64,000 nt of DNA from an uncultured virus (IMG/VR IMGVR_UViG_3300047160_009670) (taxonomy: Duplodnaviria; Heunggongvirae; Uroviricota; Caudoviricetes): the IMG/VR virus record IMGVR_UViG_3300047160_009670. One strand, given 5' to 3'. The position numbers and the translations under genes are program-made. The notes beneath the pieces are model-generated. The model searched no databases. It was not told the origin of the DNA and saw only the letters and a list, made by a program, of their open reading frames with translations. Shown in pieces: positions 26,963-55,497 of the stretch (within the stretch, counting starts at the first letter, position 1; each line of letters opens with the position of its first letter).

Positions 26963-27425
26963 ATGCCGAACATCCGGTCGAGCGACCGCCGATTCTACAT
27001 CGGCCCGAAGGATCGGGATCGCATCATAGTCTTGCGCGCGCAAGGCGTTACATTTGCAGATATTGGTAGGCGATTGGGGTTTACCGCGTCGGCCGTAGGA
27101 TTCGTCTACCGGCAGGAAATGGCCAGGCGCCGCCAGTCAGGCGGCGGGGCATGAACCCGACAGGGGGCGGCCCATGGCTTTTCGCAAGCGCAAGCCCCCG
27201 CCGGAACCGCCAGGATTCGACCCGGACCGCGCCCCGCCCTGCGCGTGGTGTGGCACTGAAGCCCATATCCGCCAATGGATAAGCGGTCTGACCCTGTGCC
27301 ATGACTGCGCCGACATGCTGGGCGAAACCGAACGGTTGCTGGCCGCCAGGCTTATCTATAAATATCCGCAAATCTACAAGCGTACCCGGTTCGTCTGGGG
27401 ATGCAAGAACCTGCTAGGGGGTTAA
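26963..27425 (+). CDS. Small HTH protein (26963-27154) and zinc-finger protein (27174-27425)
   Basis: LRAQGVTFADIGRRLG; CAWCG..LCHDC. Confidence 0.6.
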
Positions 27426-27427
27426 TC

Positions 27428-31723: not shown

Positions 31724-32191
31724 ATGTCGGACCATCCGGCCTGGGTACCGACCTTTCTGGAACTGATCCGCAAGACAGGGAACGTCAGCAAGGCGGCGAC
31801 CCGCGCGGGGATTGATCGCGGTACAGCCTACTACCATGCCAGCCGGTCCAAGGAATTCGCGGCGGCATGGGCGGAAGCGGACCAGACCCATATCGACAAC
31901 CTGGAAGAACTGGGCCTACTGCGGGCCAAGTACGGCCGCAGGCGCACGGTTCTCAACGATGAAGGGCAAGAAGTAGTTATACATGATAAGCCATCAGATA
32001 GGCTTATGGAATTCTTCCTGAAAGGGAACCGGCCGGAAAAGTATGGGAACATCCGCGAACTGGAAGAAATCGCCCGCCGAATATGCAGAGAGGAAATGGG
32101 GCGACCGCTACCCGATGATGGCCCGGGCGATCCGCCCGGCCATCGCGGCCGAAACGGCGGCCAAGGCGGCGGCCGCACAAATGGACCCTAA
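31724..32191 (+). CDS. terS: Terminase small subunit
   Basis: FLELIRKTGNVSKAA..AGI.R...Y...F..AW..A...D.LE and SDRLMEFFLK..RPEKY; directly before TerL. Confidence 0.85.
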   Translation: MSDHPAWVPTFLELIRKTGNVSKAATRAGIDRGTAYYHASRSKEFAAAWAEADQTHIDNLEELGLLRAKYGRRRTVLNDEGQEVVIHDKPSDRLMEFFLKGNRPEKYGNIRELEEIARRICREEMGRPLPDDGPGDPPGHRGRNGGQGGGRTNGP

Positions 32192-33875
32192 TAACAAATA
32201 CCTATACGATCCGGTCGCGTTCGCAAAGGACGAACTGGGCATCGACCTGTGGAGAGAACAGGCCGACATTGCCCGGTCGCTGTGCGTCTTCCCCCATCGC
32301 GTCATTGCCCGGACCGCGAATTCGGTCGGCAAGTCGATCACGGCCGCTTGCGTAGCCATCTGGTTCTACCGGACCCGGCCCCGTGGGCAGGTCATCATCA
32401 CGGCGCCCAAGGCAACGCAGGTTGATGATATCATATTCAAGGAAATCCGCCGACTTTACAAATGGGCGGGCGTCTATCCCAAGGCGTCCCGGATCGAAGA
32501 TGTTCCGGGCCATCTGCTTTACGGGTTCACGGCCCGGTCCGAAGCCCATTTCCAGGGTGAACATGAACCGCATACTTTAATCATATTTGATGAAGCTGTA
32601 GGTATTGATGAACAGTTCTGGACCGCGGCCCGCGGCATCCTGTCGGCGGGCATTGAATCCATGTGGCTGGTCCTGGAAAACCCGACCGACCCGTCCAGCT
32701 ATGCCTATGAAGATGAATTGCGCGGCGGATGGGATGTTCATGCGATAAGTGGGTTCAGGCATCCCAATATCGCCGCGGAACTGGATGACAAGCCGGCGCC
32801 CATCCCCGAAGCCCTGCGCCTGGGACAGCATACGCTCAACATGGGGGACTGGGGCGACTGGCTGGAACATGACGATGAAGCCGGGCCGGGGGACATTGAC
32901 ATACTGGACCCGACCCTGTACGGCCTGGAAGCGCTGACGCCCCTACAGGTCGAGCGCGCCGGCCTGATCTTCCCGTCCCGCTACTGGCGCCCCGGACCCG
33001 ACGGCGAAGCCCGCGTCCTGGGACGGTTCCCCAGCCAGGCCGCCTACAGCGTCTTTGCGGAAGCCGCGTTCGACCGGGCATTCGCGTCCAAGATGCTGCC
33101 CCTGCCGAGCGATGGACCGGTCATAGGCTGCGACGTGGCCCGCATGGGCGACGATGCGACCGCCATCCATGTGCGCCGGGGTAACGTATCATTGGAACAT
33201 AGGACTTACCGTAAACAAGATACGCTTGCTACTGCGAACACATTAAAGGAACTATGTCATAAGTGGGGACCGAAGTTCAATGTCTGGCCGCATCTGGTAC
33301 CTTGCCTTATTGACGATGATGGCGTTGGCGGGGGCGTGGTTGACAACCGCGTATCGACAGCGGGGCCGGCCGATATCGCGGCGGGGCGGGAATGGGGGCG
33401 GGCCTACAACTTCATACCGATCCGGGCAAGTACCCTACCCAGGCGGCCGGAACGGTATCCTAATGTAAGATCAGAATTACTTTTTGATCTTGCGGAACGC
33501 ATGGCGAACGGCCTGATTTCGCTGGCCGGCCTGCCGCGGGATACCATGCTGGAACTAAGGCGCCAGGCCATCGGGATTACCTACAATCTTGATGCGGCCG
33601 GCCGCCGGGTAGCGGAACCGAAAGACGCGATGAAGTCCCGGCTGGGCCGCTCGCCCGATGACCTGGACGCGATGGCGCTCTGCTACTACACGCCGACCGA
33701 AGCCCCGCCGGTCTTCGAACCGGTCCTGTCCGAACGCCCCAATCTGTGGCGCGGCGAAACATCGACCGCCGGCCTGCAAATGATGTTCGCGGAACCGCGG
33801 CGCCATCGTCCCGATGACCTGGACGATATGAGCGCATTTAAGCGCGGTAATGGATGGAACTTCCGCGGGGGCTAA
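32043..33875 (+). CDS. terL: Terminase large subunit (true start probably 32116-32181)
   Basis: Walker A ANSVGKS, Walker B IIFDEA, nuclease GCDVARMGDD, IDDDGVGGGV, SPDDLDA. Confidence 0.92.
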   Translation: MGTSANWKKSPAEYAERKWGDRYPMMARAIRPAIAAETAAKAAAAQMDPNNKYLYDPVAFAKDELGIDLWREQADIARSLCVFPHRVIARTANSVGKSITAACVAIWFYRTRPRGQVIITAPKATQVDDIIFKEIRRLYKWAGVYPKASRIEDVPGHLLYGFTARSEAHFQGEHEPHTLIIFDEAVGIDEQFWTAARGILSAGIESMWLVLENPTDPSSYAYEDELRGGWDVHAISGFRHPNIAAELDDKPAPIPEALRLGQHTLNMGDWGDWLEHDDEAGPGDIDILDPTLYGLEALTPLQVERAGLIFPSRYWRPGPDGEARVLGRFPSQAAYSVFAEAAFDRAFASKMLPLPSDGPVIGCDVARMGDDATAIHVRRGNVSLEHRTYRKQDTLATANTLKELCHKWGPKFNVWPHLVPCLIDDDGVGGGVVDNRVSTAGPADIAAGREWGRAYNFIPIRASTLPRRPERYPNVRSELLFDLAERMANGLISLAGLPRDTMLELRRQAIGITYNLDAAGRRVAEPKDAMKSRLGRSPDDLDAMALCYYTPTEAPPVFEPVLSERPNLWRGETSTAGLQMMFAEPRRHRPDDLDDMSAFKRGNGWNFRGG

Positions 33876-38172: not shown

Positions 38173-39987
38173 ATGAAAGATGAAGATATCGATTACCAGC
38201 GGGAACCGACCCGCGGCCAGTCCGCCTTGTACGGCATGGCCAAGATCGTCGAGCAGGTTGCATCCGCCCTGCCCGGCGATGCCGCCAGGGAATTGACCGA
38301 CGGGTTCAAACGCAAGGCGCGCGAATTTGATGATATTCTTGACCAATGGGTCATCCAGCCGCAATCGACCTGGGCGGCTCAGTGGAACACGATTTCCCGG
38401 ACGTTCCGCAGCTATTCCGATGCGGCGCTCAAGGACAACTGGATTTCGGCGATTGCCTTCCGCAATGACCCGTCCATCGACAGGCATATGCAAAGGCGCA
38501 AGGACCCGGTCAGTACCCTGGACTGGGAAATTGAAAGCGACGATGAAGACGACAAGGACCAAAAGGAAATATGTAAACAAGTAGGTCAAATCGTCAAACA
38601 GACCCCCTACTTCATCAACATCAAGAACTGGTTAGGCGAAGCGATATGGGGCGGCCGGTCGGCGGTCCAGTTGATGTATACCCGGAAGATGATTGCCGGA
38701 CGGCGGCGGGTCGTCGTCAAGAAATTCATTCCCATATCTTGCGACAAAGTCATATGGAAATGGGACGGTACGCCCGGCATATTGGTCTACATGCCCGCGA
38801 CCGTTCCCGCGAACCAGTATTCCAAGAGCCTGGAACAGCTAGCGGACCGCGGGCCTTGCCTGTTCCTGTACGACCGCTTCGACCGGATGCAGTATGTCAT
38901 CCATACATTTCAACCATCCGATTCCGACTACCTGTACCAAGGGGACTTCGCGGCGGCCATCTACGGCTACGGGCTGCGCGGCAGGCTGTACCATTGCTGG
39001 TGGACACGGACGGAACTGCTTTCATGGGTCATGAACGCCCTGCAACGCCTGGCCATCAACGGTATGCTGATCGGGTTCTACGATTCGGGGGATGACGCGG
39101 CGAAGGCGGCAGTCAAGCAGTGTCTTTTGAACATCAAAGACTTTGCTTTTGGGTTGATGCCCAGGCGTCCGGGGCAAGTAGACCCAACAAGCATGATTCA
39201 TAACATACCGCCACAAACAGTTGGATATCCTGTTCTGAAAGAATGGATCGACTACTTCGATACGCTTGCTGAAGAAGTTATCCTTGGACGCATTGATAAC
39301 TACGGGGTCACGGGGGATGCGGCCCTGGAACTGGTTACCAGTGCCCAGTTCCTGCGGTTGAAGTCCGATTCATCGGCCCTGGACGATACGCTGACGGCGC
39401 AGTTCCTTGGTCCCTTGCTGCGGATGAACGAATTCGTCTACCGCGGGCGGCGCTACCGGGGAAACGAATTACCATTTCAAATCAGGTACAAATCGGTACT
39501 TGATACCGAAAACGTCCTGAAGAAATTGCAGTCAGCCCAGCTACTTAACGGCATGGGCGCGCAACTGGACGAAAAACATCTGCTACGAATTGCCGGATTC
39601 AAGCGACCCGAAAAGCCGGATGATGTTCTGGGCTACAAGGCCAAGCAAGCCGAACTGGCGATGCAGGCGCAGGCCGAACAGGAAGCTGCCCAGGCTCAGG
39701 CAGCGGCCCAAGGCGGGGCCGGGATGGAACCTGGCATGGAAGGACCGCCCGCAGGCGCGGAAGGCATGGCGCCCGCGCAGAACGGCCCTGGCATGGCCCC
39801 GGGACCGGCCCTGTCGGGCAGCATCGCGGCCAGGCCCGATACCTACACGCATGAAGGGGAAGGCGCCCCGCCCCCGCGCCTGGAACGGGAACGGTACGCG
39901 GCCAGCGCGTACCATGCTCCGATAACCAATCGGATCGCGCGGTTACTGAATGGACGCGGTAAAGAAACCACCAATGGTCATAAGTAA
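38173..39987 (+). CDS. Portal protein (Mu gp29/DUF935-like)
   Basis: DP.I...M..RK.PV..LDW.I, EAIWGG.S...L.Y, G.GL...LY..WW motifs; position and size. Confidence 0.8.
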   Translation: MKDEDIDYQREPTRGQSALYGMAKIVEQVASALPGDAARELTDGFKRKAREFDDILDQWVIQPQSTWAAQWNTISRTFRSYSDAALKDNWISAIAFRNDPSIDRHMQRRKDPVSTLDWEIESDDEDDKDQKEICKQVGQIVKQTPYFINIKNWLGEAIWGGRSAVQLMYTRKMIAGRRRVVVKKFIPISCDKVIWKWDGTPGILVYMPATVPANQYSKSLEQLADRGPCLFLYDRFDRMQYVIHTFQPSDSDYLYQGDFAAAIYGYGLRGRLYHCWWTRTELLSWVMNALQRLAINGMLIGFYDSGDDAAKAAVKQCLLNIKDFAFGLMPRRPGQVDPTSMIHNIPPQTVGYPVLKEWIDYFDTLAEEVILGRIDNYGVTGDAALELVTSAQFLRLKSDSSALDDTLTAQFLGPLLRMNEFVYRGRRYRGNELPFQIRYKSVLDTENVLKKLQSAQLLNGMGAQLDEKHLLRIAGFKRPEKPDDVLGYKAKQAELAMQAQAEQEAAQAQAAAQGGAGMEPGMEGPPAGAEGMAPAQNGPGMAPGPALSGSIAARPDTYTHEGEGAPPPRLERERYAASAYHAPITNRIARLLNGRGKETTNGHK

Positions 39988-41361
39988 ATGACGCTACCCG
40001 CATCCCGGGCCGCTTCGCGCGGGGCCATCTTCCTGGGTCCGCATCGGCCCTGGGAAGAAGCCAAGCATCCCCGCGGCAAAGGGGGGAAATGGGTCCGCAA
40101 GGGATTCGGGCAAGCCGGACCGGCCGTATCGGCCGGGCATAACTTTTCCGCCTTACTAAAAGGCTTTTCGCCAACGCCTGCGGCGCCGCCCGAACCGCCG
40201 TCCCCCAGGACCAGCGGCAGCCGGGCCGGAACGGCGACCCCATCTGCCGAGCGCGAGGAACCCGAGCGCGAGGAACCTTCGACAACCAAAAAAGGTTCGA
40301 CCCCGTTCCAGGATCGCCAGACCGTTGCGAAAACGGCATTCTCGTATTCGGGGCCGTTGAAAGGCGGCATCAACGGATCGCATATAATCGTGGCGCCTAA
40401 CGGGATGCAGGCGGTTTTCAAGCCGAGCGATGAAGAAAGCAGCGGCGCGCGCAAGGGAATCACAGTCGGAACCTACTGGCGGCGCGAGATCGCGGCCAGC
40501 GAAATTGCCGATATCATGGGGTTCGGCGATTTGGTTCCGACGACCGTAGAAAAGACGGTCAGAATCGGGAAGAAGTCCAAGCGCGGGTCGGCGCAGGAAT
40601 TCGTGCCGGAAACCGACACTGCCATCAATTCGTATAACCCCTGGGATGGAGAGAAGGACGCCATACGGGCCGCAGCATTCGACTACCTGATCGGAAACAA
40701 TGATCGACATATGCGGAACTGGTTGCTGCGCGACAAAGATGACAGCATGGTCCTGATCGACCATGGATTCTCATTCTCAAATACCATGTACGAATTTGGC
40801 CTGAAGATGTTTATGGAGCGTGCGGTTACCAATGATTGGCCCGTACCGGATATGACCAAGCTGGCCGGTCGCTGGCCGGAAGTCGAAGCGGTCTTGAAGC
40901 GCCTGGAAATCGAACCGGATGCCATTGCGCTGACCAAGGGGCGGTTCAAGAATCTTACATCGGGCAAGTACGAAAACTTCAATCAACTGGCGTCGGCGCC
41001 CTTGGGCGAACCCATCAAGGCGTCTACGATGGCGCATCCCGCGTCTACGCCCCCGCGGTCTTCGGGCTACGGGGAGCCCATGGGTTCCAGGTCAAGGGAA
41101 TCCATCCTACGGGGCGCCGCAGCGAAGAAAGAACCGCGCGGCCCCAGTACAATGCATGAACGGGCCGAAGAATTCGAACTGAAGAAACAGGAAGAAGCGG
41201 AACGGAAGACCCGTACGGATATGCGCGACTTGGCAGCGCTGACCCGCGGTATGAATCAGTCTACAATTGATTATGCGGCGCGGCTGATGGACAAGCATGG
41301 GACGGCGTGGGTCAAGTCCTGGCTACGCGGTCGAAGAAGTCTACTAGGACTATCAAGTTGA
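39988..41361 (+). CDS. HipA/PI3-PI4-like kinase with N-terminal WEEAKHPRGKGGKW motif
   Basis: GGINGS, VFKP, REIAAS, VPTTV, GSAQEFV, FDYLIGNNDRHMRN, LIDHGFSF. Confidence 0.85.
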   Translation: MTLPASRAASRGAIFLGPHRPWEEAKHPRGKGGKWVRKGFGQAGPAVSAGHNFSALLKGFSPTPAAPPEPPSPRTSGSRAGTATPSAEREEPEREEPSTTKKGSTPFQDRQTVAKTAFSYSGPLKGGINGSHIIVAPNGMQAVFKPSDEESSGARKGITVGTYWRREIAASEIADIMGFGDLVPTTVEKTVRIGKKSKRGSAQEFVPETDTAINSYNPWDGEKDAIRAAAFDYLIGNNDRHMRNWLLRDKDDSMVLIDHGFSFSNTMYEFGLKMFMERAVTNDWPVPDMTKLAGRWPEVEAVLKRLEIEPDAIALTKGRFKNLTSGKYENFNQLASAPLGEPIKASTMAHPASTPPRSSGYGEPMGSRSRESILRGAAAKKEPRGPSTMHERAEEFELKKQEEAERKTRTDMRDLAALTRGMNQSTIDYAARLMDKHGTAWVKSWLRGRRSLLGLSS

Positions 41362-41657: not shown

Positions 41658-44266
41658 TCATGCTGTGAAGACGACGGTACCGCCGTTCTTGTCGTCTTCA
41701 TCTTCAACTGTATACTTGATTTCCCCTTTAAGCAAACGGTCGAACACGTCGGCGGGCGGGGCGATTGGCCCCTGGAACCCTTCGGTAAAGACCCGCAGCA
41801 ATGCCTTCCGGTCCTTGCGGAACTTGTAGCCGTTCATGGCCCAGCGCAGGATGCCGGGCGTGCAAATGAGAGAACTGGAAAGCAGGCGGTAAGTCCGCGG
41901 TTCGGTCTTGTCAGTCTTGTTCTTGGCGGTCATGGTTCAACCCCCCTTCATTGGTTTCGGTCACGTTGGCCCGCGCAGCCTGATCGACCAGTCGTTCGCG
42001 CGCTGCGGTATAGGCTGCCGACGGGCATTCATGGTCTTCGCGCGCGAAGTAGATATGGGCGCAGGCCGGGCAGCGCTTGGTCTTGACCGTTACTACAACT
42101 GCGCTACCGTTCATGTTATCCCCCTTTTATACGTTCTTGACCCAGGCCCCGTTCGCATCGTCGGCCCCGAAAGCCTTTACTGCCCCTGTCTGCGTATCGT
42201 AGACCAAGGCGAAGGCCGGCAGGTCGGTCGATACGTTCGTTGCCTTGATTAGTTCATGGGCGCGGGTCTTGGCTTCCGTAATGGTCGCATGGTACGACCA
42301 TGGCTTGACAACCGGGTATTCGGTATGGTTATGACTAAGCCATACCTGATATCGAGAGAAGTTCATGTTATCCCCCTTTCAGGCCGGCTGCAAGTCGGCC
42401 GTAGCATGCCATTGGATATCGTCAACGCACAGCGCGTTGTCGCGGTCCATGCCGCAGACCAGATGCAGGACCGGGTCAACCCCGACCATGCAAGCGATGG
42501 TTTGCAGCCGGGCCGGGCCAGTACCGACGGCCAGGACTTGCGGGTCCAGGTCCACAATCTGGCCCAGCCAGCCGTTTTCAACGTTCCGGGCGTAATCGCC
42601 AACCTTGAAAATGTTCATCGGATTATCCTTTCATCGAACAACGAACCCGTCATCGGTCAGGTTCCGTGCCAGGTCCTGGGCGTAGCGCGGTTCAACCGCG
42701 ACCGCATCGCCCAGGAAGCCGGCGGCTTCTTCGACATGCTCGAACAGCCAGTCCGCAGCCCGCTTGTTCAGCGGCCGGCATAGGAACAGCGAACCGTGGT
42801 ATTCGAACCGATAGTCAGGCTTGACGGTCTTCATCGTAGACCCCTTTCATTCCCGTTCGTAGCCATCGAACCAAGGACCATGACGACGCGTACGCCGATG
42901 GGCCTTCGCCCCGCGCGCCGTACGGCTATGGGTTTCCGGGTTCCGGCAATGGGCCTGGGCTTCATCCAGCGATAGGCCCCGCGCGATGACCCGCTTGTAA
43001 ACCTGACCGCGGGCCAGATGGTTGTAGTAACCGTCATAGTAACCGCGTACGACACGATAGGTATCCATACATTTAAACCCTTTCATCCTAGCGCCTTGTC
43101 TACCTGATCCGCAGCCCGTTCCAGGATGCGGGCCAACTTGTTCCAGGGACGGCCGGCCCCCTTGTCTTGCCAGGCCGCCGTCAGTTCCAGGGCCGATTCC
43201 GCGTACGTTTCCGCAGCGCGCCGCAAAACCGCGGCGACTTGATCGGGATGCGATACGTCCAGGTCCAGGTCTTTCATCGTGCCCCCCTTCATCTACCCCC
43301 ATTATAGGCGCTTGTCTAGCGCTTGTCAATAGTCGTCGTCGGGCAGGCCCGCGAGAACGTGACCCAAAGGCTGATGGGTCGTTCCGCCGTCCGGGCCGAA
43401 ATCGTCATACTTGAATCCCTTGACCCGTTCCTTGACGCCCTTCAGGTCCAAACGCGCCTGTTCCCAGGTATCCCAGGTTTCCAGCCAGACCCGCCGATCC
43501 CGGCCTGCCAGGACGCTAGTGCCGGGGTAGACGCTATGGCCGTACAGAACCGGGTTCGCGGTCCGGTAGGTCGTCCCCCGGCCCGCTTCCAGCGTGAACG
43601 TCCAGCGCTGCTTGCCGCCGTCGGCCTTCAGTTCCGCAAGACGTTCCGCAATAGCCTTGGCGTTCATCGTATTCCCCTTTCAATAACAGCCGTTGCCGTC
43701 TACCCAGTCGCCGGCATTGGTTTCATCAACGTAGAAGCATTCGTAAAGGCCATGCTTCATCGGCAGCCGGAAATCGTCCGGCCGCGTCTTCCAGGTTTTG
43801 CAGCGTCCGTTGACGCGCGCCCGCATCGGCGTTCCATCCGCGTTTTTCAGCGTAACATGATGGAATTCCTGCCGGTACTGGGCATTCATCGCTTGTTCGC
43901 GGGTCATCTTCGACCCCCCTTTCTTGGTCTACTTACATTATAGGCGCTTGTCATGCGCCTGTCAAGTGACGGCCGCGGGAATCGAACCCGCTTATGTTCC
44001 CGTTCTCCTGGGCTTGCTGAAGGCCCCGGCCCAACGGGCGTCCCCAGGAAAACGGCTGGTTCAGCGGCCAGCCGCCGCCCTGCAAGACAGGATGCCAACC
44101 CCCCGACCGTCATAAGTCATGCATCAAAGCCGCTTGTCGTCTTCCAGCCCAGTCTACGGGCGGTTCCGTCGAGCAAGTCGGCCGCAACCAGCCCCCCGAA
44201 AGCTATGTCAGCGGCCAATGCCAGCCGCAGCAACCAAAGCGTTCCGGTAAGAAGCAATGCGGTCAT
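41658..44266 (-). CDS. Antisense island of about 10 small early-type ORFs
   Basis: Abutting minus-strand ORFs with AAGGGG-type RBSs under three early promoters. Confidence 0.7.
43301..43329 (-). promoter_or_regulatory. Conserved early promoter
   Basis: TTGACA-AGCGCTAGACAAGCGCC-TATAAT. Confidence 0.9.
43937..43965 (-). promoter_or_regulatory. Conserved early promoter
   Basis: TTGACA-GGCGCATGACAAGCGCC-TATAAT. Confidence 0.9.
43967..44111 (-). ncRNA. tRNA-like RNA (acceptor stem plus T arm, large insert instead of an anticodon arm)
   Basis: GACGGTC pairs with GGCCGTC-A; GCGGG-TTCGATT-CCCGC T arm; internal hairpins. Confidence 0.65.
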
Positions 44267-44313: not shown

Positions 44314-44342
44314 ATTATAGGCGCTTGTCCAGCGCTTGTCAA
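44314..44342 (-). promoter_or_regulatory. Conserved early promoter
   Basis: TTGACA-AGCGCTGGACAAGCGCC-TATAAT. Confidence 0.9.
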
Positions 44343-47300
44343 TAGGCGGGGGGATGACCTTGGGCGGAATATCCACCAAACGCATGGCTCTGCGGGGACG
44401 GTACTTCCGGCGACCCGACGGGGCCGAACGGTACGAAATCCGGCATACCCCGGAAGGCGGGGCGACCGTCGCGGGGCATCCCTACAAGGGGGGCCAGTTC
44501 CTACCCGGGGGGCCGGTCGCCGCCGCGGGGAAGGCCGTTGCCGCCGGTAAGGCCGTCGCGGGCAAGGCGGGTCGAGCGGTCCTAGGCGCCCATCGGGTCG
44601 CCGCCCATCATGCCGGGCGTGCCCTGGCCGCTGGGCAGGCTGCCGCAGGCCGGACCGGCCGGGCCATCGCCAGCGGAGCCGTACGGGCCGCTCCCCATAT
44701 CGCCCGGGGCTGGCAGGCTACGGAAGAATGGCTAGAACGCGCCGGGGAATTCGCCATCCATCGGCTGCCCAGGCGCTGGCAGGAAGCCGCCCGCGGCTTC
44801 TGGCGGGCCTATATGTCATCGTTCGAAGCCGCCTGGAAGACGGTCGAAGCGGTCGCGCTCGATTCGGGCCTGGACGAAGAACAGACCAAGATACTGGGCC
44901 GGGTCATCGCCGCAGCGGACATGGTCCTAAGTTATCCTATGTCCATAGGCGCGCATGTCGTCCTGGGACCCGCCGGCATCGCCGCATCGTTCATTCCCGT
45001 AGCGTCCATAACCTACCTGGCATGGTCGGGCCGGCGCGACCCCCTGGGCGCGTTCGCCCATGCCCGCCGGGCCATCCGCAAGACCATGATCGAAGTCCGC
45101 CATGGCAAGGAACGGCATGCCGAACGGCATGCGGCCGATCCGGTCAGGAAGCTGGGTTTGGATCGGGGCCTGATCCGGGCCTTGGCCCGCCTGTCTGATA
45201 ATCCTGACTTCATGCTTTTACTTCATGTCGCCCTTGATGAAACCCGCGGCAACCTACCGCAGTCGATCAAGCTGGCCGGCATGGCGCTGGGCCGGCCCCG
45301 GCCCCAGCGGTACGCGACCGGCCGGTCCCTGGGTCGATGGATACCCGACAGGCAGCTAGAAAAGTATGAAGTACGGCACGCGCCGGCCGGCGGGGCCGTC
45401 ATCCGGGGCAAGGAATATCCTGGGGGCGAATTCATACCGCCGGGCGTCTACGCGCGAGCGACCCCCGAAGAAAAGGCCAAGCTTGAACCGGGCGCGGCCG
45501 AAGGGAATGGCAAGCCCCCTGCGGCGCATGCTGCGGCCGAAGCCCGTCAGGCCCGGGCCAGCCATCGGCATCAAAGCCGGCTCTATGCCCTGCGCGACTA
45601 CCGGGAACATGGTCTGAAAGCAAAAGCATTCAAGCATTGGTTTGGGGACTGGGAAGCCGATCCCGGTAATGCATCGAAAGTCGTTAGTAGAAAGACAGGG
45701 GAACCGACAGAAAATTACGGGGTCGTCAAGGTCTACCACGGTACCGGCGCGCGGTTCGTTGCCTTCGACCCGGCCCACAAGGGTACCCATGGCAGCATGG
45801 TAGGCCAGGGATTCTACTTTGCCGAAAAGCGGCGCATCGCCGAATCGTTCGAAGAAATATCAGGTAAGGGCGGCCGAATCGTTGAAGCCTATCTGAACAT
45901 ACGAAATCCCTTTTCATTTACTGATACCTTTACAGAAAATGATATCAATCGGATCGCGAAGTCTGCCGGGGAATGGATGGTCGAGAAGTACCCCCAGCTT
46001 CTACCCCGGCCGGATGAATGGACGGAAACGGACGAACCGCGGAAGCCTACGGCGGATGAATGGGAACGGTCCATCAGGGAAAGTATCTATGTCCGTCTGA
46101 GCGGGGATCGGGAAGCTAACGGGTACAATGTCTACCTTGGTCTAGGCATGCGCCTGGGCACGCGCTTCATCAATTCCTTTATCGAATCGCTTGGATATGA
46201 TGGAATAATGCATGATTCAAATGATGAATTCGGAACGCCCAGGCGCAGCGACAATGATTACAATTACGGCCGGGTCTGGATTGCCTTCAACCCGGAACAG
46301 ATCAAGGCAACAAACAATATAGGAACATTTGATCCCGACGACCCCCGGATGCGCTATGCGGGCGATGTTTATCCCCCCTTCCGCCGGCGCGAACGGTACG
46401 CGATTGTCCATGCCCCCGCAGGCGGGGCGGTCATCGGCGGCAAGGAATACCCCGGGGGGGAATTCACGCCGGCCGGCGCGATGGCCCTGGGGAAGCATGA
46501 CGGCACGACGCATGACGGCGCGCGGTCCGAATCCGACCTGGGACCGGCCAGCCTGGCCAGGCGGTTTGCCAAGCCCAAGGCGACCATCGGCGAAATGGTC
46601 CCCGTGCGCCGTATCGGCAAGGGGAAGGAAGCCAAACTGGTCAAACCCGATGGCAGCGACTTCCCCAGCCATGTCCGGGCCGCCAGCATCCCGCCGGCCT
46701 GGACCGATGTTACAGTGGCGGTAGACGCAGATTCAGATGTTCAAGTCAAGGGGCGCGATGCCGCGGGACGGCCGGTTACCAAGTACCGGCCCAGCTACGT
46801 CCTGAAGACGCAACAAATCAAGTTTGCCAGAATTGATTATGTAATGCGGACCTTCCCCAAGATCATGCGCCGGATCGAAGCCGGCCGCAACGCTCATTCC
46901 CCCTTGACCCGGGCCGCCGCCGATGCCGCCTGGCTGATTGCCGTCCATGGCATCCGGCCGGGCAGCGCCAAGGATACCAAGGCGGTTCACAAGGCGTACG
47001 GCGCGACGACCTTGCTGGCCGAACACGTCAAGCAAGAGCGCGACGGGGTCTACCTGGACTTTCCCGGCAAGTCGGGGGTTCATAACCGCCATCTGATCGC
47101 CGACCCCGCCCTGGCGACGATGCTTATCAAGCGGAAGCTGACCGCCCAGCGACGGGGCGGACGCATCTTTGACATATCCCCTGAACATCTGAATTCATTT
47201 ATAAAGTCGGCCGATGCCGGCGCCATAACGGCTAAAGACCTGCGAACCCGTTTGGCAACACAAACGGCAATCAATCTGGTAAATGCCCGCAAGGCCCCGC

Positions 47301-47440
47301 CCGCGACCCACAAGGACTACAAGGCGTCGGTCAAGGCGGTCGCGGAACTGGTCGCGCGCAAGCTGGGCAACAAGCCATCGGAAGCCCTGAAAAGCTACAT
47401 CAATCCCGCGGTCTTCGCGGGCTGGGCGCAGGCTGCCTAG
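44336..47440 (+). CDS. Polyvalent protein: helical/hydrophobic module, ART-PolyVal-like ADP-ribosyltransferase and DNA topoisomerase IB
   Basis: FKHWFGDW..VYHGT..GQGFYFA..YLNIRNP..GYDG..AFNPEQIK; TopIB motifs IPPAW, GIRPG, YGATTL, FPGKSG, AKDLRT, LGN, SYI. Confidence 0.88.
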   Translation: MSIGGGMTLGGISTKRMALRGRYFRRPDGAERYEIRHTPEGGATVAGHPYKGGQFLPGGPVAAAGKAVAAGKAVAGKAGRAVLGAHRVAAHHAGRALAAGQAAAGRTGRAIASGAVRAAPHIARGWQATEEWLERAGEFAIHRLPRRWQEAARGFWRAYMSSFEAAWKTVEAVALDSGLDEEQTKILGRVIAAADMVLSYPMSIGAHVVLGPAGIAASFIPVASITYLAWSGRRDPLGAFAHARRAIRKTMIEVRHGKERHAERHAADPVRKLGLDRGLIRALARLSDNPDFMLLLHVALDETRGNLPQSIKLAGMALGRPRPQRYATGRSLGRWIPDRQLEKYEVRHAPAGGAVIRGKEYPGGEFIPPGVYARATPEEKAKLEPGAAEGNGKPPAAHAAAEARQARASHRHQSRLYALRDYREHGLKAKAFKHWFGDWEADPGNASKVVSRKTGEPTENYGVVKVYHGTGARFVAFDPAHKGTHGSMVGQGFYFAEKRRIAESFEEISGKGGRIVEAYLNIRNPFSFTDTFTENDINRIAKSAGEWMVEKYPQLLPRPDEWTETDEPRKPTADEWERSIRESIYVRLSGDREANGYNVYLGLGMRLGTRFINSFIESLGYDGIMHDSNDEFGTPRRSDNDYNYGRVWIAFNPEQIKATNNIGTFDPDDPRMRYAGDVYPPFRRRERYAIVHAPAGGAVIGGKEYPGGEFTPAGAMALGKHDGTTHDGARSESDLGPASLARRFAKPKATIGEMVPVRRIGKGKEAKLVKPDGSDFPSHVRAASIPPAWTDVTVAVDADSDVQVKGRDAAGRPVTKYRPSYVLKTQQIKFARIDYVMRTFPKIMRRIEAGRNAHSPLTRAAADAAWLIAVHGIRPGSAKDTKAVHKAYGATTLLAEHVKQERDGVYLDFPGKSGVHNRHLIADPALATMLIKRKLTAQRRGGRIFDISPEHLNSFIKSADAGAITAKDLRTRLATQTAINLVNARKAPPATHKDYKASVKAVAELVARKLGNKPSEALKSYINPAVFAGWAQAA

Positions 47441-47444: not shown

Positions 47445-47672
47445 ATGCCCCATCTACCGGGCATGCGGAACCGGGTCTTCTTCGGCCGGCATACGCCGAA
47501 CTGGAAAGCCGAAAAAGGGGCCGACCGCGCCGCCAATGACGATGACGATGCGGAACCGACCGCAGACCAGTTAGAAGCATTGGTCATCATACTTGGATTT
47601 GACCCGGACGAACTGGAAGACGAAGCCGAACCGGAAGAAACCGACGATGCCCAGGATACGGGAAACGATTGA
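47445..47672 (+). CDS. Small acidic protein after the TopIB polyprotein
   Basis: D/E-rich with LGFDP core. Confidence 0.6.
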   Translation: MPHLPGMRNRVFFGRHTPNWKAEKGADRAANDDDDAEPTADQLEALVIILGFDPDELEDEAEPEETDDAQDTGND

Positions 47673-49329
47673 TCCATCAGCGCCGGGGGTCGGCCTGTCG
47701 CGGCGGGCGGGCGAACCCTTGCGCGCGCGCTACGCCGCGGGGCCGCCCCTGACGATGGAAGCCCATGACGGGGAAGACGAACTGGACCTGAACAGCCTGC
47801 CCGAAGCGGGGATCGAAGACCTGGACCTGGACGACAGTTCCAAGTTTGTCCGGTTCGCCCGCGTTCCAGTCATGGATACGCATGGAACGATATTTGGACG
47901 GGATCAGATAAAGAAACCAATATCATGGAAGACGCTGAAGCTGATGGCGCAGAACAATAACGCCATGATCGAAAGTCGGGGGCAGTACCCGACGATCCTG
48001 ATCGGGCATACGCATGACGACGGGCCGGGACCGAACGACAAGATTCGCGAAAGCGACCAGCCCGTGCATGTCGGGTTTGCCAAGAATTTCTGCCTGGGGC
48101 GCTACCGCGGCGAACCGATGCTGCTTGCGGATTTTCATATTCGCAAGCCATTGGTAGGTATGGCGCTAACATATCCGCATAGAAGTCCCGAACTGTTTCG
48201 GTCGAAGGAACCGGAACAGAATCTGGTCGATTCGATTTCCTTGCTGCGCCGGGCGCCGGAACGGCCGCTGGGTCTTTTGACCTACGACCGCGACCTGCCC
48301 CCGGGCGTGGAACTGGTTCGATACGCCCGCGATTTCCCGCCCTTGCGGCCGGCGGATACCGCGGAAGTTTTCCAAACCGGCCGCCGGGTCCAAAACGAAA
48401 GGGGAAACCGCATGCCCATGGACCCCGAAGACTTGTCAACGATCATCCATGGCGTGACCAAAGGGCTTGCCGCTTTCTTCAAGGAACTGGAACACGGCGA
48501 GCACGAAATCGAAGCCGGCGAGCATGGCATGGAAGGCGAACTTGCCGACATTGAAGCCGAAGAAGCCGGCGGGGAACCGCTGGGCGGGGAAGGCGAAGAA
48601 GAAGAAGAGGAAGAAGAAGCCGAACGGGAAGAATACGCCGCCAGTACCCCCGGCCCGACTTCCAGTTTCGTCCCCGGCCGCGGCCAGCATGCGCGCTACA
48701 AGCGCATTGATGACTTCATGTATGCCGACCCGGAACATGAAGGCGACGTTGCCGAAGAACGTGAAATCCATAAACCCAAACATCAACATGCCGCTGCGGT
48801 CATGCGGCAAGGCCGGATTTCCGGGGCGGGCGCCGGGGCCGGCGGGAACTACCCGCCCGTGGAAAGGACGCGCGAGCGCATGGCCCGAACCGCGGCCAAC
48901 ATCGAACGGGTACGGTACGAACGGGAAAACGCCCGCCTGCAACGGCGGGTCGGCGACCTGGAACGGTACGCCCGGGCCGCCGAACGGGGCGCTGACCTGA
49001 ACGCCCTTGTCGCGGCCGGCTACGACCTGGACGTAGCCCAGGAACTTGACGACTGCGTTGACCTGACCGAACCCCAATACGAACGTCATTTGACCCGTAT
49101 TGCGGAACGGTACCGCCGCGATCCCGTTGACCAGCCGGCCATCGAACCGGCGCATGTCGAAGGATCGACCGATCCAGATGCAGATATCAATGGATTGACA
49201 AGCGATGATTCCATTTCGATCTCGCGATACGTTCGCGACCATCCCGAAATGGACCATACCGTCGCGGTCAACGATTGGATCAAGAGAAACGTGGAAAGCC
49301 GCCGCGTAGGCGGCCCGCGCGTCGGGTAA
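47647..49329 (+). CDS. Prohead protease-scaffold (Mu gpI/gpZ-like); scaffold from internal start 48412
   Basis: ILIGH..VGFA..LLAD..YPHRSPEL protease-like pattern; AAAGGGGAA RBS before in-frame ATG 48412; acidic coiled C-terminal half; precedes capsid genes. Confidence 0.75.
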   Translation: MPRIRETIDPSAPGVGLSRRAGEPLRARYAAGPPLTMEAHDGEDELDLNSLPEAGIEDLDLDDSSKFVRFARVPVMDTHGTIFGRDQIKKPISWKTLKLMAQNNNAMIESRGQYPTILIGHTHDDGPGPNDKIRESDQPVHVGFAKNFCLGRYRGEPMLLADFHIRKPLVGMALTYPHRSPELFRSKEPEQNLVDSISLLRRAPERPLGLLTYDRDLPPGVELVRYARDFPPLRPADTAEVFQTGRRVQNERGNRMPMDPEDLSTIIHGVTKGLAAFFKELEHGEHEIEAGEHGMEGELADIEAEEAGGEPLGGEGEEEEEEEEAEREEYAASTPGPTSSFVPGRGQHARYKRIDDFMYADPEHEGDVAEEREIHKPKHQHAAAVMRQGRISGAGAGAGGNYPPVERTRERMARTAANIERVRYERENARLQRRVGDLERYARAAERGADLNALVAAGYDLDVAQELDDCVDLTEPQYERHLTRIAERYRRDPVDQPAIEPAHVEGSTDPDADINGLTSDDSISISRYVRDHPEMDHTVAVNDWIKRNVESRRVGGPRVG

Positions 49330-51403: not shown

Positions 51404-51961
51404 ATGCAAACCGTTCAATCGGCAACCGTACCATATGCCACGCCGGCCCAGTTCCTTGCTACCTACGACTACCGGCCGGCGGGGCAACTGGTACGGGATG
51501 ACGGTACCCAGGCCGGTTCGTCGGACCTGACCGTCCCGGATGCGAACCTGCAATGGGCCTTGATGGAAGCGACCGGCGAGATTGAAATGATGGCCAGCAT
51601 CGGCCAAAGGTATAGTCCGACCGACCTGCAAAACCTGGCGAACAGCAATACCGCCGGCGCGGCCATCCTGGCCAAGATGACTTGCGATATCGCCGCGGAA
51701 TACCTGCGCGAACGCCGCTTGATTCCAGCCATCAACCCGTACCCGGCCTACCTGCGCGCGCAGCAAAAGCTGGATGCCCTGGCCACGGGCGGGGCCATTT
51801 TCCCGTTTACCGAAGCCGCCAAGGCTGGGGTTGCAGATAATTACACATTCAATCAAACCGATATTGACAACGTAAACCTGATTACCCGTAACAGATTCGC
51901 ATGGGGCGTCCGCGGATCGTACGGGGTCGGCTTCCCCGGTTCGTCGGCGGGGATGGGATAG
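51404..51961 (+). CDS. Head-tail adaptor (Mu gp36/DUF1320-like)
   Basis: YAT....L..YD.....L..D...ALMEATGEI......RY...L....CDIA..YL..RR. Confidence 0.75.
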   Translation: MQTVQSATVPYATPAQFLATYDYRPAGQLVRDDGTQAGSSDLTVPDANLQWALMEATGEIEMMASIGQRYSPTDLQNLANSNTAGAAILAKMTCDIAAEYLRERRLIPAINPYPAYLRAQQKLDALATGGAIFPFTEAAKAGVADNYTFNQTDIDNVNLITRNRFAWGVRGSYGVGFPGSSAGMG

Positions 51962-51963
51962 CC

Positions 51964-54900
51964 ATGGGCAGGCGTAGGCGCAGGGAACGGTACGACAGGC
52001 CAGGCGCTAATCCTGACCTGCTAGCGCCGATTGAATACCGCAAGCCCTTTTCCGTCTTCGAACATCCGACGGTATGGACGCCAGGCGGCACGTCCAGCGT
52101 AGTCGGCATGTACGACGTTCACGGCTACTTCCCTGGCCGGCGCTACGCGGATGTTCTGGATGCCCGGATAGATCAAGCCCGCAAGCCGATGGGGGTCGGC
52201 AAGACCGGCCAGTTCCCGGGCCGCGTTCCCGGCTGGGGTCCGGGCGCCATGGTACCTGGCGGGCGCCCTGCCCCAGTCATGCCCCCGAAGCCCAAGCCAG
52301 AGGAACGGCTACCGGATGAACCGGATGAATATATTCCGACCAAATGGCGCGAAGGGTCTACCCCGCGCGGGGCCAGCGAAATCCAGCCGCTGTTTCCGCG
52401 GCCGACCAGAAAGTTCGTACCGGCCCCCTGGACCCCGTCGCGCCTGAAAGAACATGCCGAAATGGATCAACCCATAGAAGAATTAGAACCCCTTGGTAGG
52501 TTTGCCAGGGACCGGCGCCCCGTCCGGTATCAAGGCCCGGAACAGGCGCCCGCGCCGGTCATCCTGCCCGAACGGAAGACGCCGGCTGCGGAACCGGCGC
52601 CGCCGCCGTCGGCGTTCCGCCAAGCCGCTCGCGTCTTTGCTACGGGCAAGGGAACAGTAATCAGCCCGGGCCGGATGCAGGTACAGCCCATCCCCGGGGG
52701 CGTTGCCTATCCCGAAGAATTCGAAGAACAATTGAAGGGAACCCCATTTGAAAAACCTAAGCCAGAAGACACATTTGTACGCACTACGGTAGCTGACTTC
52801 CCGGGACATGAACATATCCCTGACGTAACGCTGCGCGCGCAAATCCTGCCCAAGAGGCCGGGAATCCTGCCGGAAGGTTTCCATGTTCCAGTCAATCCGC
52901 GTCAATTGCATACCGGCCTGAAGGCAGCCCCGGAATTGTCGCGCCGGTACTTCAACAAGGCAATGCAGCGGACAGGTCAGGAAATCGAAGCGACCCGGCA
53001 GAAATTTGTGCCGCCGGCCCGCGTACTGGGACCGGTCCCGCGCGACCTATCCAAGCCGCAAAAGATGAAGGAACAGTACGCCATGACCAGCGGTCCAGCG
53101 ATCCGCAACGCCATGCTGCGCCGCATCGCCAGGGGGTTCGCGGCGTACCGTCGGCGCAACAAGGAACGGGAACGCTTCCAGTACATTGCTCGGATGACGG
53201 CGCCAACCCGATACCAGATGGTCCCCGATACGACCGGGACCGCGGGCGGCGCCATCCCCCGCGAACGACCGGTCCCGGTTACTTCGGGTCAAGCCGGGGT
53301 CATAGGTTCAAGTAATCCCCTGGGCGGCGGACAGGGCGCGTACGTGTCCCCCGCGCAGGCCGGGGCCGGCTTGCGACCGACCGGCATGTACGGACCGGCG
53401 CGGTACCAAGCCGATGACGAACCAAGGGGGCTACAACGGGTAACCCCGCCGGAACATCCTGCGACCTACTACACAAGCCCGTACGCCAGCCGGCAGCCGA
53501 CCCCCGCGGAAGTCAGTCACGCGGAAGGATTATCACGTACCGATATCATGAGGTCGCGGGCGCAGGTCCAGGGGCGGGCCATCCCGACCCCGCCAGGTCA
53601 ACCGCCCCCGGCCCCGCCCATGCGCCCTGGACCGGCCGCCATGCGGCAGAAAGCGCTCCAGGCGCAGCGCGGCTATCGGGGCGTACCGGCAGGAACCCCG
53701 GCGCCGGAACTGCCCCCCGGGCGGCCCCCGCCGGAATGGCCGCGCCCGGCGACCGGTCTGACTGAAGAAATCAACAAGGTAGGCGCGGCGGAAGAACGGG
53801 CGCAGATGGCCGCGTGGGCGCGCCGGGTAGGGGGCCTGGAAGACGTTCCGGGTCAACCGTCGGGATACGGCATGCCGACCGTTACCCCCGAACAGCGCCA
53901 GGCCGATTTGCGGCGCCTGGATGCGATCAAAGAAATGCACGATCAACAGCGCGAAGATATAAACAGGCTACGAAAAGCTTATGGCAAGCCCGAATTGCCG
54001 CCGCGCCATCGGTTGCGGGAATCTACCGCGCCATGGCAGCCGAACCCAAAGCTGGGGGCCATCATGCAACGGATTGCCCCGCGAAAGCTGGGCGAATTGG
54101 TTCCAGAACCCGTAACCCCGCCGGGCATGACCAATCAACAGCGCCTGAAAGCGCTACGGGAATTCCAGGCGCCCATGCCGCCGGCAGGTCCGCCAGCGCC
54201 GCCGGCAGCGGGGCAGGGGGCGGGTCAAGGGGGCGCGGGAATTACCCGCGGCGGCGCCGGCGCCGGCGGTCAGGCGGCGCGCGGCGACAGGACGGGCGTG
54301 GCGCAGGGATTCGCCAGCGTCGGCCTGGGACCGACCCGGAAATTCGCGCCCCAGATGACAGATGAAGAAGCGAGACAAGCATACATAGGTTCGCATGGGT
54401 TCGGGTTTCCAAAAAAAAAAGGTAAGACCCGCGAACAGTACGCCATGACCCCGCAAGGGGTCTGGACCAATCCCGATCCCATCGCGGCATCCCGGGGCGG
54501 AACCCAAATGCCTTCGGGCCTGGGAATGGCGCCCCAGATGCCGCAGCCAGCGCCGGCAGCCGGCGCGGGGCGGTTTGTGCCGGTGACTGGGAAAGCAGGC
54601 GAATTCATGATGGGCCAGCGCCCCGGAGGATTCATCCCGGTTACCGGCGCGCCCGGCGGTCGTCAGGAAGGCCCCAGGATCGGCCCAGAGCGGCCCGGGG
54701 CCAAAGGCGGGGCGGCAGGGGCAGGGGAACCCGCCCCGGACCGTCCGCGGGCGCGGACCGAACGGCCGACGGAAAATACCGCGGCCCAGATGCGGGGGCA
54801 GATGCGGGCGATGGGCGGGGTCGGTCCGCCGATTCCCGGACCCAGGCTACCGGGCCGGGGCAACGTCCGCCCGAACCAATGGGGTCGCGGCGGGGCCGGC

Positions 54901-55497
54901 GGCGGCGGGTTCCGGGGCCTGGGGAACGCGATACCCGGCCAAAGGCCCCGGCCGATGTTCCGCGGCGGGCGCGAATTGGGACCGGCCGGGCAACAATTCT
55001 GGCAAGACGTAAAACGGGAACAAGCGAACATAGAACCACGTCTTGAAGCGCAGGGCCGGGCGGAATTGGCGCGGCGGCGGGCCGCGATTGAAGAACGGGC
55101 CGCCCCCGCGCAGGAAGGGCTGGGCGAAACCGGGGCGTTCGCGGCGGGATTCGGTCAGCAAGCGGCAGCGGGCCGACGGGGCGGCGGCGCGATACCCAGG
55201 GTTCCCCCGCCTGCGGGCGCAGTACCGGCCGCAAGGCCAGCGGCGCCCGCGGCCCCGGCAAGGCCGGCAGCGGCTAGGCCCCCGGGCGAAGCGCTGTTCG
55301 GGCCGCTCGCTGAAGGATTCGCCCCGCCCGGCATGGTCGCGCGGCGGGCCAAGCTGCGCGATGAATACAACCTGAAAACAGACCAGCAACTGCAACGCAT
55401 TGATGACCCGCTCGCGCGCCAAATCCTGTACGAACGCGCGGACGAACGGCGGCGGCATCCGTTCCCCTGGACCGAAAAGGCAGCGGGCAAACGATAG
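51964..55497 (+). CDS. Large Pro/Gly/Arg-rich polyprotein 4
   Basis: Starts MGRRRRRERYD; EQYAMT twice; RYQ three times; largely low complexity. Confidence 0.7.
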   Translation: MGRRRRRERYDRPGANPDLLAPIEYRKPFSVFEHPTVWTPGGTSSVVGMYDVHGYFPGRRYADVLDARIDQARKPMGVGKTGQFPGRVPGWGPGAMVPGGRPAPVMPPKPKPEERLPDEPDEYIPTKWREGSTPRGASEIQPLFPRPTRKFVPAPWTPSRLKEHAEMDQPIEELEPLGRFARDRRPVRYQGPEQAPAPVILPERKTPAAEPAPPPSAFRQAARVFATGKGTVISPGRMQVQPIPGGVAYPEEFEEQLKGTPFEKPKPEDTFVRTTVADFPGHEHIPDVTLRAQILPKRPGILPEGFHVPVNPRQLHTGLKAAPELSRRYFNKAMQRTGQEIEATRQKFVPPARVLGPVPRDLSKPQKMKEQYAMTSGPAIRNAMLRRIARGFAAYRRRNKERERFQYIARMTAPTRYQMVPDTTGTAGGAIPRERPVPVTSGQAGVIGSSNPLGGGQGAYVSPAQAGAGLRPTGMYGPARYQADDEPRGLQRVTPPEHPATYYTSPYASRQPTPAEVSHAEGLSRTDIMRSRAQVQGRAIPTPPGQPPPAPPMRPGPAAMRQKALQAQRGYRGVPAGTPAPELPPGRPPPEWPRPATGLTEEINKVGAAEERAQMAAWARRVGGLEDVPGQPSGYGMPTVTPEQRQADLRRLDAIKEMHDQQREDINRLRKAYGKPELPPRHRLRESTAPWQPNPKLGAIMQRIAPRKLGELVPEPVTPPGMTNQQRLKALREFQAPMPPAGPPAPPAAGQGAGQGGAGITRGGAGAGGQAARGDRTGVAQGFASVGLGPTRKFAPQMTDEEARQAYIGSHGFGFPKKKGKTREQYAMTPQGVWTNPDPIAASRGGTQMPSGLGMAPQMPQPAPAAGAGRFVPVTGKAGEFMMGQRPGGFIPVTGAPGGRQEGPRIGPERPGAKGGAAGAGEPAPDRPRARTERPTENTAAQMRGQMRAMGGVGPPIPGPRLPGRGNVRPNQWGRGGAGGGGFRGLGNAIPGQRPRPMFRGGRELGPAGQQFWQDVKREQANIEPRLEAQGRAELARRRAAIEERAAPAQEGLGETGAFAAGFGQQAAAGRRGGGAIPRVPPPAGAVPAARPAAPAAPARPAAARPPGEALFGPLAEGFAPPGMVARRAKLRDEYNLKTDQQLQRIDDPLARQILYERADERRRHPFPWTEKAAGKR

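Follow-up and report, generated by a model that had tools for sequence, protein, structure and literature searches.

Introduction

Polyvalent proteins of phages and conjugative elements, as portrayed in the searched text of Iyer et al. 2017 (PMC5512222), combine several effector domains in one polypeptide, with ART-PolyVal, an ADP-ribosyltransferase (ART), as hub domain, and their genes lie beside those for portal and terminase. The same text predicts that these proteins are packaged in the head and injected, proposes their processing into units via zincin metallopeptidase domains, and describes portal and MuF fusions. Here, we analyzed a stretch of 64,000 nucleotides (nt) from an uncultured virus of the Caudoviricetes (IMG/VR record IMGVR_UViG_3300047160_009670), hereafter the window, in which one open reading frame (ORF) encodes a protein, P0001, with three modules, each headed by a copy of a small element that we call the junction domain. 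No such domain is described in the searched text of PMC5512222, the main text of which uses the word topoisomerase once; the domain could be listed among the numbered LPD of its supplementary alignments (LPD1-40), and the LPD models available in Pfam gave no match to it. Likewise, the text seen of Iyer et al. 2022 (PMC9503650) covers head-protein fusions with no such junction element, and a search for terms denoting it in the accessible text of Jamet et al. 2017 (PMC5576092) returned no hits. Apparently, the junction domain has not been described before.

The new elements, as judged from sequence, are the wide spread of the junction domain, the rules of its position, the exchange of cargo behind it, and the recurrence of type IB topoisomerase (TopIB) as portal-linked cargo. 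The explanation that we favor, and regard as reasonably probable, is that P0001 is a polyvalent cargo protein of the capsid, that the junction domain serves as both handle and separation site, and that the modules act early in infection.

A Polyvalent Protein with Three Copies of One Domain

The ORF and its parts are arranged as follows (aa, amino acids):

44336..47440, plus strand: ORF of the polyvalent protein P0001, 1034 aa from the TTG at 44336 (ORF listing and translation)
44417..44569, plus strand: junction domain copy 1 (aa 28-78), with the hairpin core ERYEIRHTPEGGATVAGHPYKGGQFLPGG kept and an Ala/Gly-rich stretch instead of the helix
44603..45328, plus strand: module 1, a conserved domain (aa ~90-331) with a hydrophobic stretch at aa ~186-230, ending in RPQRYA
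45350..45493, plus strand: junction domain copy 2 (aa 339-386), the full form including the helix ATPEEKAKLE
45608..46360, plus strand: ART-PolyVal ADP-ribosyltransferase including its N-terminal FKxWFGDW extension (aa 425-675), ending in GTFDPDDPRMRY
46382..46531, plus strand: junction domain copy 3 (aa 683-732), with the hairpin core kept and the helix diverged
46535..47437, plus strand: type IB topoisomerase, probable N-terminal domain and catalytic domain (aa ~734-1034)

One junction copy therefore stands before each of the three modules. By these features, the product of ORF 44336-47440 is assigned to a known class, the polyvalent virion proteins: it joins ART-PolyVal and TopIB, at least two effector domains being the mark of this class, to a third conserved module, and its gene lies in the portal-terminase/head context of such proteins, with genes for the large terminase (TerL) and a Mu-type portal upstream on the same strand. 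In the Pfam scan, P0001 showed no portal domain, and the MuF domain PF04233 was not matched at E<=1. A search of IMG/VR with the whole protein found no relatives, and the closest cultured phages share with it only distant ART or TopIB segments.

A preliminary description of this ORF had noted a motif at 44426, 45359 and 46391 and had read it as an identical tag of ~25 aa ahead of each module. A regular expression close to, though not the same as, the pattern used there was run over all six frames of the window and hit these three positions only, all in the frame of ORF 44336-47440 (residues 31, 342 and 686 of the 1034-aa product), so the threefold occurrence was confirmed. The copies are, however, not identical, as copies 1 and 3 share only 39% and 57% of residues, respectively, with copy 2 over 51 aa; and the segment of ~25 aa, which is indeed conserved, turned out to be the core of a larger domain of ~45 aa. 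Over its full length of ~45-50 aa, the conserved unit starts with an RY[AE] strand and continues with two glycine hairpins and then a helix ATPEEKAxLE; in P0001, only copy 2 keeps this helix. Among the homologues first obtained, four proteins bore the same motif, extended by the helix. The consensus reads RYxxxHAPxGGVTIxGKxFxGGEFIP..ATPEEKA in its short form and r-y-a-a-x-HAPaGGVTIgGKxFxGGeFIPgeVmAkATPEEKAxle when drawn from 161 copies, and eight residues (H, P, GG, G, GG, P) are invariant in an alignment of 40 diverse copies. P0001 belongs to this family, since all three of its copies match the family profile and carry the invariant residues.

At the DNA level, copies 2 and 3 form the best pair, with 80% identity over 70 nt and many synonymous differences. 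Because the copies differ at synonymous sites, the repeat is maintained by selection on the protein; recent duplication was considered as the origin of the three copies and rejected on the same synonymous divergence.

Regarding the start of the ORF, ATG 44354 (aa 7) or ATG 44384 (aa 17) are likelier than TTG 44336, because the latter is overlapped by the -35 box of a minus-strand promoter and because the Atlas record of the protein begins at residue 17, that is, at ATG 44384. Whichever codon is used, copy 1 lies ~10-30 residues from the N-terminus.

AlphaFold, run on the 40-sequence alignment, predicted two small hairpins and two short helices (predicted local distance difference test, pLDDT, 70.5; 81-84 in the core). 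No fold relatives were obtained for this model with VIA-align against 48,161 chains (best Z 2.6) or with Foldseek against the PDB (nothing at E<=0.001), and the profile of the domain gave a best E of 0.77 against PDB sequences; on the basis of the model, no known fold can be named for the junction domain. In Pfam, NCBIfam and PHROG, no model covers it, even in proteins of 80-142 aa consisting of the tag only (E<=5 or 0.1). A complex prediction of the portal (aa 1-520, 20-row alignment) with the junction domain (7-row alignment) scored 0.00, which speaks neither for nor against binding.

A Large Family of Portal-Linked Cargo Proteins

A family profile was made from 7 copies and searched against 1.84 billion cluster representatives. 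It matched 1026 proteins at E<=1e-3, of which 290 remained at E<=1e-10 and 10 at E<=1e-30, far more than chance would give. Copies were counted by re-scanning the best 150 matches plus the query (151 proteins): a single copy was found in 83 proteins, two in 48, three in 14, four in 4 and five in 2, so that 68 proteins carry 2-5 copies. Two of the 150, P0174 and P0198, are glycine-rich with many partial matches and may be false.

Among the 146 newly found proteins, 115 were scanned with Pfam, the 31 longest being omitted for size. No Pfam family was recognized at E<=1e-4 in 55 of the 115. Portal_Mu was present in 29, and in every one of them (29/29) the full junction copies lie C-terminal to the portal domain, two of these proteins also showing weak partial junction matches near the N-terminus. 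Phage_Mu_F was matched in 5 proteins, above the cut-off in one only. The cargo domains found downstream of a junction copy in these 115 proteins were:

Zeta_toxin: 9 proteins
TopIB: 8 proteins
ART-PolyVal: 7 proteins
ADPrib_exo_Tox: 5 proteins
2H phosphoesterase: 5 proteins
PI3_PI4_kinase: 3 proteins
InPase: 2 proteins
Single cases: Fic; GNAT with sigma-70 regions; methyltransferase; zincin (ATLF); LPD1

Variable cargo behind the tag in other phages, the absence of which the preliminary description had named among the refutations of its interpretation, was thus observed in the profile search and the Pfam scans, as well as in the IMG/VR loci described below. Moreover, in all 15 proteins that lack portal and MuF domains and have one or two recognized cargo domains, the junction copy is upstream of the cargo, mostly at less than 100 residues from the N-terminus. 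The domain hence occupies three kinds of site: between portal/MuF and cargo, between cargo modules, or at the N-terminus of stand-alone cargo. A metagenomic protein, P0178, has sigma-70 regions 2 and 4 between two junction copies, in addition to 2H and GNAT domains, an architecture that suggests an injected sigma factor.

In IMG/VR, the junction domain was found in 47 loci, which yielded 28 non-redundant tag ORFs. In 10 of the 28, the domain follows a portal domain within one ORF (Portal_Mu in 4, Phage_portal_3 in 5, and Phage_portal in 1, below cut-off), and MuF is carried by 3. Fifteen more loci were inspected, and 6 of them have a separate portal gene immediately before the tag gene. A variant of the domain, [LI]RAPKGGVxIKGKxFxGGQFIPxxGGYAxEYKKMQ, is found in the Phage_portal_3 group. 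A scan of species genomes with the 40-row alignment identified one locus only, in a metagenome-assembled genome of the Planctomycetota. The junction domain is what the members of a large and so far unnamed family of portal- or MuF-linked cargo proteins have in common.

These position rules bear on the possibility that the domain has a spacing role alone, as a compact rigid element that separates modules amid flexible linkers, with no part in targeting, cleavage or exchange. In favor of this, it lies between modules with low-complexity linkers on both sides, and neither a partner nor a fold relative was found. Nevertheless, in many two-part proteins it forms the very N-terminus, where there is nothing to space, and it is upstream of cargo in 15/15 cases; the H, the P and the five G that stay unchanged among very diverse phages are more than a spacer requires, and the domain is tied to portal-adjacent genes. 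A mere spacer is, in our opinion, unlikely.

Cargo Exchange behind the Junction Domain

Comparison of portal fusions from different loci located the point at which their cargo changes. Between the proteins of L019 and L028, identity amounts to 93.7% across portal and tag and to 95.7% across TopIB; an insert of 198 residues with ART-PolyVal is present in L028 and absent in L019, and it begins ~35 residues after the hairpin core. Similarly, L019 is 57-62% identical to L032 and L038 up to the same breakpoint and unrelated to them beyond it. As the cargo changes ~35 aa after the domain, the junction domain marks the border between a constant carrier and a variable cargo. L028, with the order portal-tag-ART-PolyVal-TopIB, presents the cargo pair of P0001 in portal-fused form. 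Further relatives in which the TopIB is fused to a portal are found in L019, L024, P0171, P0246 and P0167, the order being portal-tag-TopIB in L019, P0171 and P0246.

Such exchange would also be expected if the domain were mainly a recombination junction for swapping cassettes, similar to pre-toxin motifs, with no role in packaging or cleavage. The change of cargo ~35 aa past the domain in portal fusions that are otherwise 57-96% identical agrees with this, as does the finding that at least a dozen unrelated cargo families follow the domain. Still, its conservation is at the protein level, with copies that differ synonymously and reach at best 80% over 70 nt; eight residues are invariant across 40 diverse copies; and a folded hairpin-plus-helix unit, as predicted, is not needed at a junction acting on DNA. 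We therefore consider it doubtful that recombination is the main role of the domain, although such a role would be compatible with its being a handle and separation site and does not exclude it.

The Enzymatic Modules

Both enzyme calls of the preliminary description held. PF18760 (ART-PolyVal) matched aa 464-665 with 66.4 bits (cut-off 31.2). According to PMC5512222, the ART family is recognized by a His in strand 1, a Tyr in strand 2 and an Asp in strand 5. The corresponding triad of P0001, H468 (VYHGT), Y494 (GFYFAE) and D622 (GYDGIM), is intact and falls in conserved columns when the protein is aligned with six relatives. The H and DG columns are conserved among the 7 aligned ART sequences, the strands being placed from sequence and not from structure. 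An extension (FKxWFGDW...SKVV) ahead of the ART is common to 111 of 120 hits, and the domain has the C-terminal motif GTFDPxxxR[MI]xY. The assignment to ART-PolyVal (Tox-ART-HYD2 clade) holds on these grounds, and, going by its family, the enzyme may modify host proteins or nucleic acids.

In the last module, PF01028 (Topoisom_I) matched aa 826-1015 with 66.5 bits (cut-off 23.7), and Top1B_N_bact reached 25.1 bits, just short of its cut-off of 27. With phmmer against PDB sequences, aa 765-1029 aligned to Deinococcus radiodurans TopIB (2f4q) with an E of 1e-20, the alignment starting at chain residue 22 of 2f4q. Residues R874, K912, R970, N1012 and Y1021 pair with R137, K174, R239, N280 and Y289 of 2f4q, which we take to be its catalytic residues. 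The module is accordingly assigned as a TopIB of bacterial/poxvirus type with a complete catalytic pentad R-K-R-N-Y, and, again going by its family, it may serve to relax or reseal the genome as this enters the cell, or have host DNA as its substrate.

Module 1 and the Downstream Gene

The preliminary description had seen in P0001 a three-module effector. The tag before each module, the ART and the TopIB fit this description, whereas module 1 has no recognizable effector and is a conserved hydrophobic domain of ~240 aa. Its hydrophobic stretch is conserved as G.AAG[IL]A.S..P.AS..YL.W (hydropathy peak at aa 211-219), and the module ends in RP.RYA. Its homologues are found in the tag proteins P0156, P0264/P0270, P0221, P0157 and the L035 ORF as well as in P0269. 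No family was found for it in Pfam, PHROG or NCBIfam, a word-indexed search among longer proteins returned nothing, and the best score in the ESM Atlas was 0.86, under the useful range. Module 1 is probably structural or membrane-active rather than enzymatic.

The element ahead of module 1 varies: it is the long junction domain in P0001 and P0264, a short glycine motif (H.HKGKG.GGGQF) in P0221 and L035, and RDESGKW in P0156. Similar short motifs (HPRxxxGKF/W) are found at the junctions of other homologues and at the N-terminus of a kinase gene of the window. The long domain thus seems to represent one of several forms within a broader class of elements that precede modules.

Module 1 also connects P0001 to the gene that follows it:

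47593..49329, plus strand: downstream head-module gene, 578 aa, likely start at aa 19

In its product, an acidic linker joins a conserved N-terminal domain to a helical C-terminal part, and the gene is at the position of the protease/scaffold gene of Mu-like phages. The only relative found is a metagenomic protein, P0269 (48% identity), whose N-terminus is a homologue of module 1 (E 5e-18 in a one-sequence search). Because P0269 fuses module 1 to a homologue of the downstream gene, module 1 is linked to a head-assembly gene. Searches of the PDB and Pfam with the downstream gene and with the capsid candidate gave chance-level hits only, no family match was obtained for the downstream gene, and metagenome contigs searched with P0269 gave nothing. 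Directly after the TopIB, an ORF for a very acidic product of 75 aa (47445-47672, plus strand) overlaps the annotated start of the downstream gene; it could encode a neutralizer of the enzymes or a DNA mimic.

An RY-A Motif at Module Ends

The RY[AE] that forms the first strand of the junction domain recurs where modules close: the portal tail RERYAASAYHAP is followed by the stop codon, module 1 ends in RPQRYA, and the ART in RMRYAGD. Certain stand-alone ART proteins terminate 2-4 residues past an RY motif. Over 20 plus-strand ORFs (9927 aa), [RQE]YA was counted 23 times, about four times the 5.9 expected; none of 1000 shuffles attained this number of 23. The motif is concentrated in six head-block proteins and absent from the seven ORFs from 55509 onward. 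Besides the portal tail, the polyvalent protein and the product of the downstream gene (47593-49329), the rich proteins are:

27401-31615: two 700-aa proteins upstream of TerL
51901-55497: a 1198-aa Pro/Gly/Ala-rich protein with repeated EQYAMT

The product of the downstream gene alone has 8 RY against 1.7 expected (0 of 2000 shuffles reached 8), several of the sites being conserved in P0269. The pattern fits a processing or docking site.

Genes and Signals around the Polyvalent ORF

The gene content of the window is phage-like. Upstream of the polyvalent ORF, the following plus-strand genes were assigned:

32043-33875, plus strand: large terminase (TerL), PHROG 2
38173..39987, plus strand: Mu-type portal gene (Portal_Mu, E 2e-23)
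39988..41361, plus strand: PI3/PI4-kinase-like gene with the N-terminal motif HPRGKGGKW

The plus-strand order is thus TerL, portal and kinase, then, after a minus-strand cluster, the polyvalent ORF and the 578-aa gene; the further plus-strand genes beyond the latter gave no family match. The C-terminal tail of the portal (RERYAASAYHAP...GK...G) can be aligned to the beginning of the junction domain as it occurs in portal fusions. The kinase gene is in the frame of the portal, a single TAA lying between them and the ATG standing directly behind the stop, and a fused counterpart exists elsewhere (P0201, portal-tag-kinase). The arrangement looks like an ancestral fusion split inside the junction domain. 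Readthrough of the portal-kinase stop was set aside, as an ATG straight after the TAA fits ordinary coupling.

Within this late plus-strand block, a cluster of small minus-strand genes (41658-43907) sits between the kinase and polyvalent genes. It is driven by three perfect sigma-70 promoters on the minus strand (44342-44314, 43965-43937 and 43329-43301), each with TTGACA, 17 nt and TATAAT (12/12 consensus matches). Between two of them lies a tRNA-like element (43967-44043, minus strand) with a canonical T-arm-like stem; it matched tRNA-Sec weakly (25.2 bits against a gathering score of 47) and was not called by ARAGORN. The sole tRNA called in the window is a tRNA-Glu (anticodon TTC) at 19817-19889 on the minus strand.

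The separation of the polyvalent gene from the portal by a cluster with its own promoters might suggest that P0001 is an intracellular late enzyme polyprotein that merely lies among head genes and is not a component of the virion. We give this very little credence: homologous modules are covalently fused to portals (portal-tag-ART-TopIB in L028 and portal-tag-TopIB in L019, P0171 and P0246), and module 1 is fused to a head-module protein.

A Proposed Route from Head Assembly to Infection

In our preferred explanation, in which P0001 is capsid cargo carried and separated by its junction domains, the protein would be made together with the head proteins and carried inside the capsid as a string of cargo modules. 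The junction domain would hold the cargo in the assembling head, in cis where it is fused to portal or MuF and in trans in the case of P0001, by docking on a head component, either the portal or the scaffold/protease core. The modules would then be separated from the portal and from each other at the junction domain through maturation cleavage beside it, possibly near the RY-A motif. Finally, the hydrophobic module, the ART and the TopIB would exit together with the DNA and be active as infection begins; the substrate of the TopIB would be DNA, either incoming or of the host, and that of the ART would be proteins or nucleic acids of the host. Packaging, cleavage, injection and targets are all steps that we infer. 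A function in release is suggested because cargo fused to a portal needs to be cut free and nothing but the junction domain is conserved between portal and cargo; one in targeting, because N-terminal copies head stand-alone cargo. The C-terminus of the Mu portal is trimmed during maturation.

Several observations weigh against this explanation. Portal/MuF fusions carry the domain although a handle for packaging is superfluous in them, and stand-alone cargo has it at the N-terminus although no site is needed there just to cut modules apart; no single simple role fits all contexts. Matches to the short core also occur in tail or tape-measure-like proteins (L031, L040). With copy 2, tblastn gave no match in 50,697 phage records, and hence no cultured phage with the domain. 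The RY found after ART domains is partly the C-terminus of the ART domain itself, the model of the junction domain has only moderate confidence, and neither a maturation protease nor a zincin peptidase was found in the window, HExxH being absent from the 20 plus-strand ORFs scanned.

The tape-measure-like matches also raise the question of whether the domain acts after injection, by localizing cargo via a feature of the host or of DNA, or as the start for unfolding and threading during passage through the tail. Tape-measure proteins also exit through the tail, and the domain precedes each module and does not follow it, as such a function would have it. On the other hand, the consensus has no marked basic charge and no known nucleic-acid-binding pattern, and a target common to such diverse hosts is unlikely. 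The probability of a post-injection role is, in our view, slight.

For the interpretation given in the preliminary description, tags for packaging or ejection freed by cleavage, the results provide partial support; a pure packaging tag is incomplete as an explanation, because the tag occurs in portal/MuF fusions. A more specific version of our preferred explanation, which we put forward tentatively, is that the junction domain is a portable load-and-release signal that brings whatever protein stands behind it into the procapsid by docking on the portal or on the scaffold/protease core, is cut at RY-A during maturation, and lets the cargo be injected with the DNA. If this were so, the signal would be shared by >1000 protein clusters and at least three portal families, and phages would be drawing on one stock of enzymes for the first minute of infection, from topoisomerase IB, ADP-ribosyltransferases and kinases to 2H phosphoesterases and even sigma factors, shuffled behind one address label.

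How tailed phages choose the proteins that are loaded into the head and injected is known for few model phages. A domain that marks cargo in ~1000 protein clusters would offer a direct route to listing injected phage enzymes in metagenomes. In addition, the junction domain might be used as a handle to bring foreign proteins into phage heads, and it offers a testable site for maturation cleavage.

Comparison with Known Systems

Compared with the polyvalent proteins in the searched text of PMC5512222, P0001 and the window have no zincin. The family presented here resembles the MuF- and portal-fused effectors and the MuF polymorphic toxins, as far as these are covered by the same sources, in having cargo enzymes on a portal-associated head protein with a variable C-terminus; P0001 differs from MuF effectors in that it has no MuF or portal domain, and the element it shares with the family is the small junction domain.

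The internal proteins of phage T4 have a capsid targeting sequence, an unfolded N-terminal stretch of ~10 aa that secures their entry to the prohead and that a known protease cuts at a defined motif. The junction domain resembles this sequence in proposed function only, as it has ~45 aa, is predicted to be folded, and is repeated internally. The pre-toxin junction motifs of polymorphic toxins, reportedly set out by Zhang and colleagues in 2012, are similar in arrangement: in both cases, a conserved segment lies directly ahead of interchangeable C-terminal domains, with the breakpoint just after it. Nevertheless, the junction domain would serve delivery by phage heads and not secretion, has no sequence relation to those motifs, and is repeated within one protein.

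As to TopIB, we know of its packaging in virions from poxviruses only, and a literature search found no paper on a phage-packaged TopIB. Our results place the type IB topoisomerase among recurrent candidate cargo of phage heads, often fused to the portal, in parallel to the TopIB of poxvirus virions. With respect to the D. radiodurans enzyme (2f4q), the alignment over residues 765-1029 covers the catalytic domain and probably the N-terminal one, and the five catalytic residues are present, while here the enzyme is the last module of a predicted cargo polyprotein.

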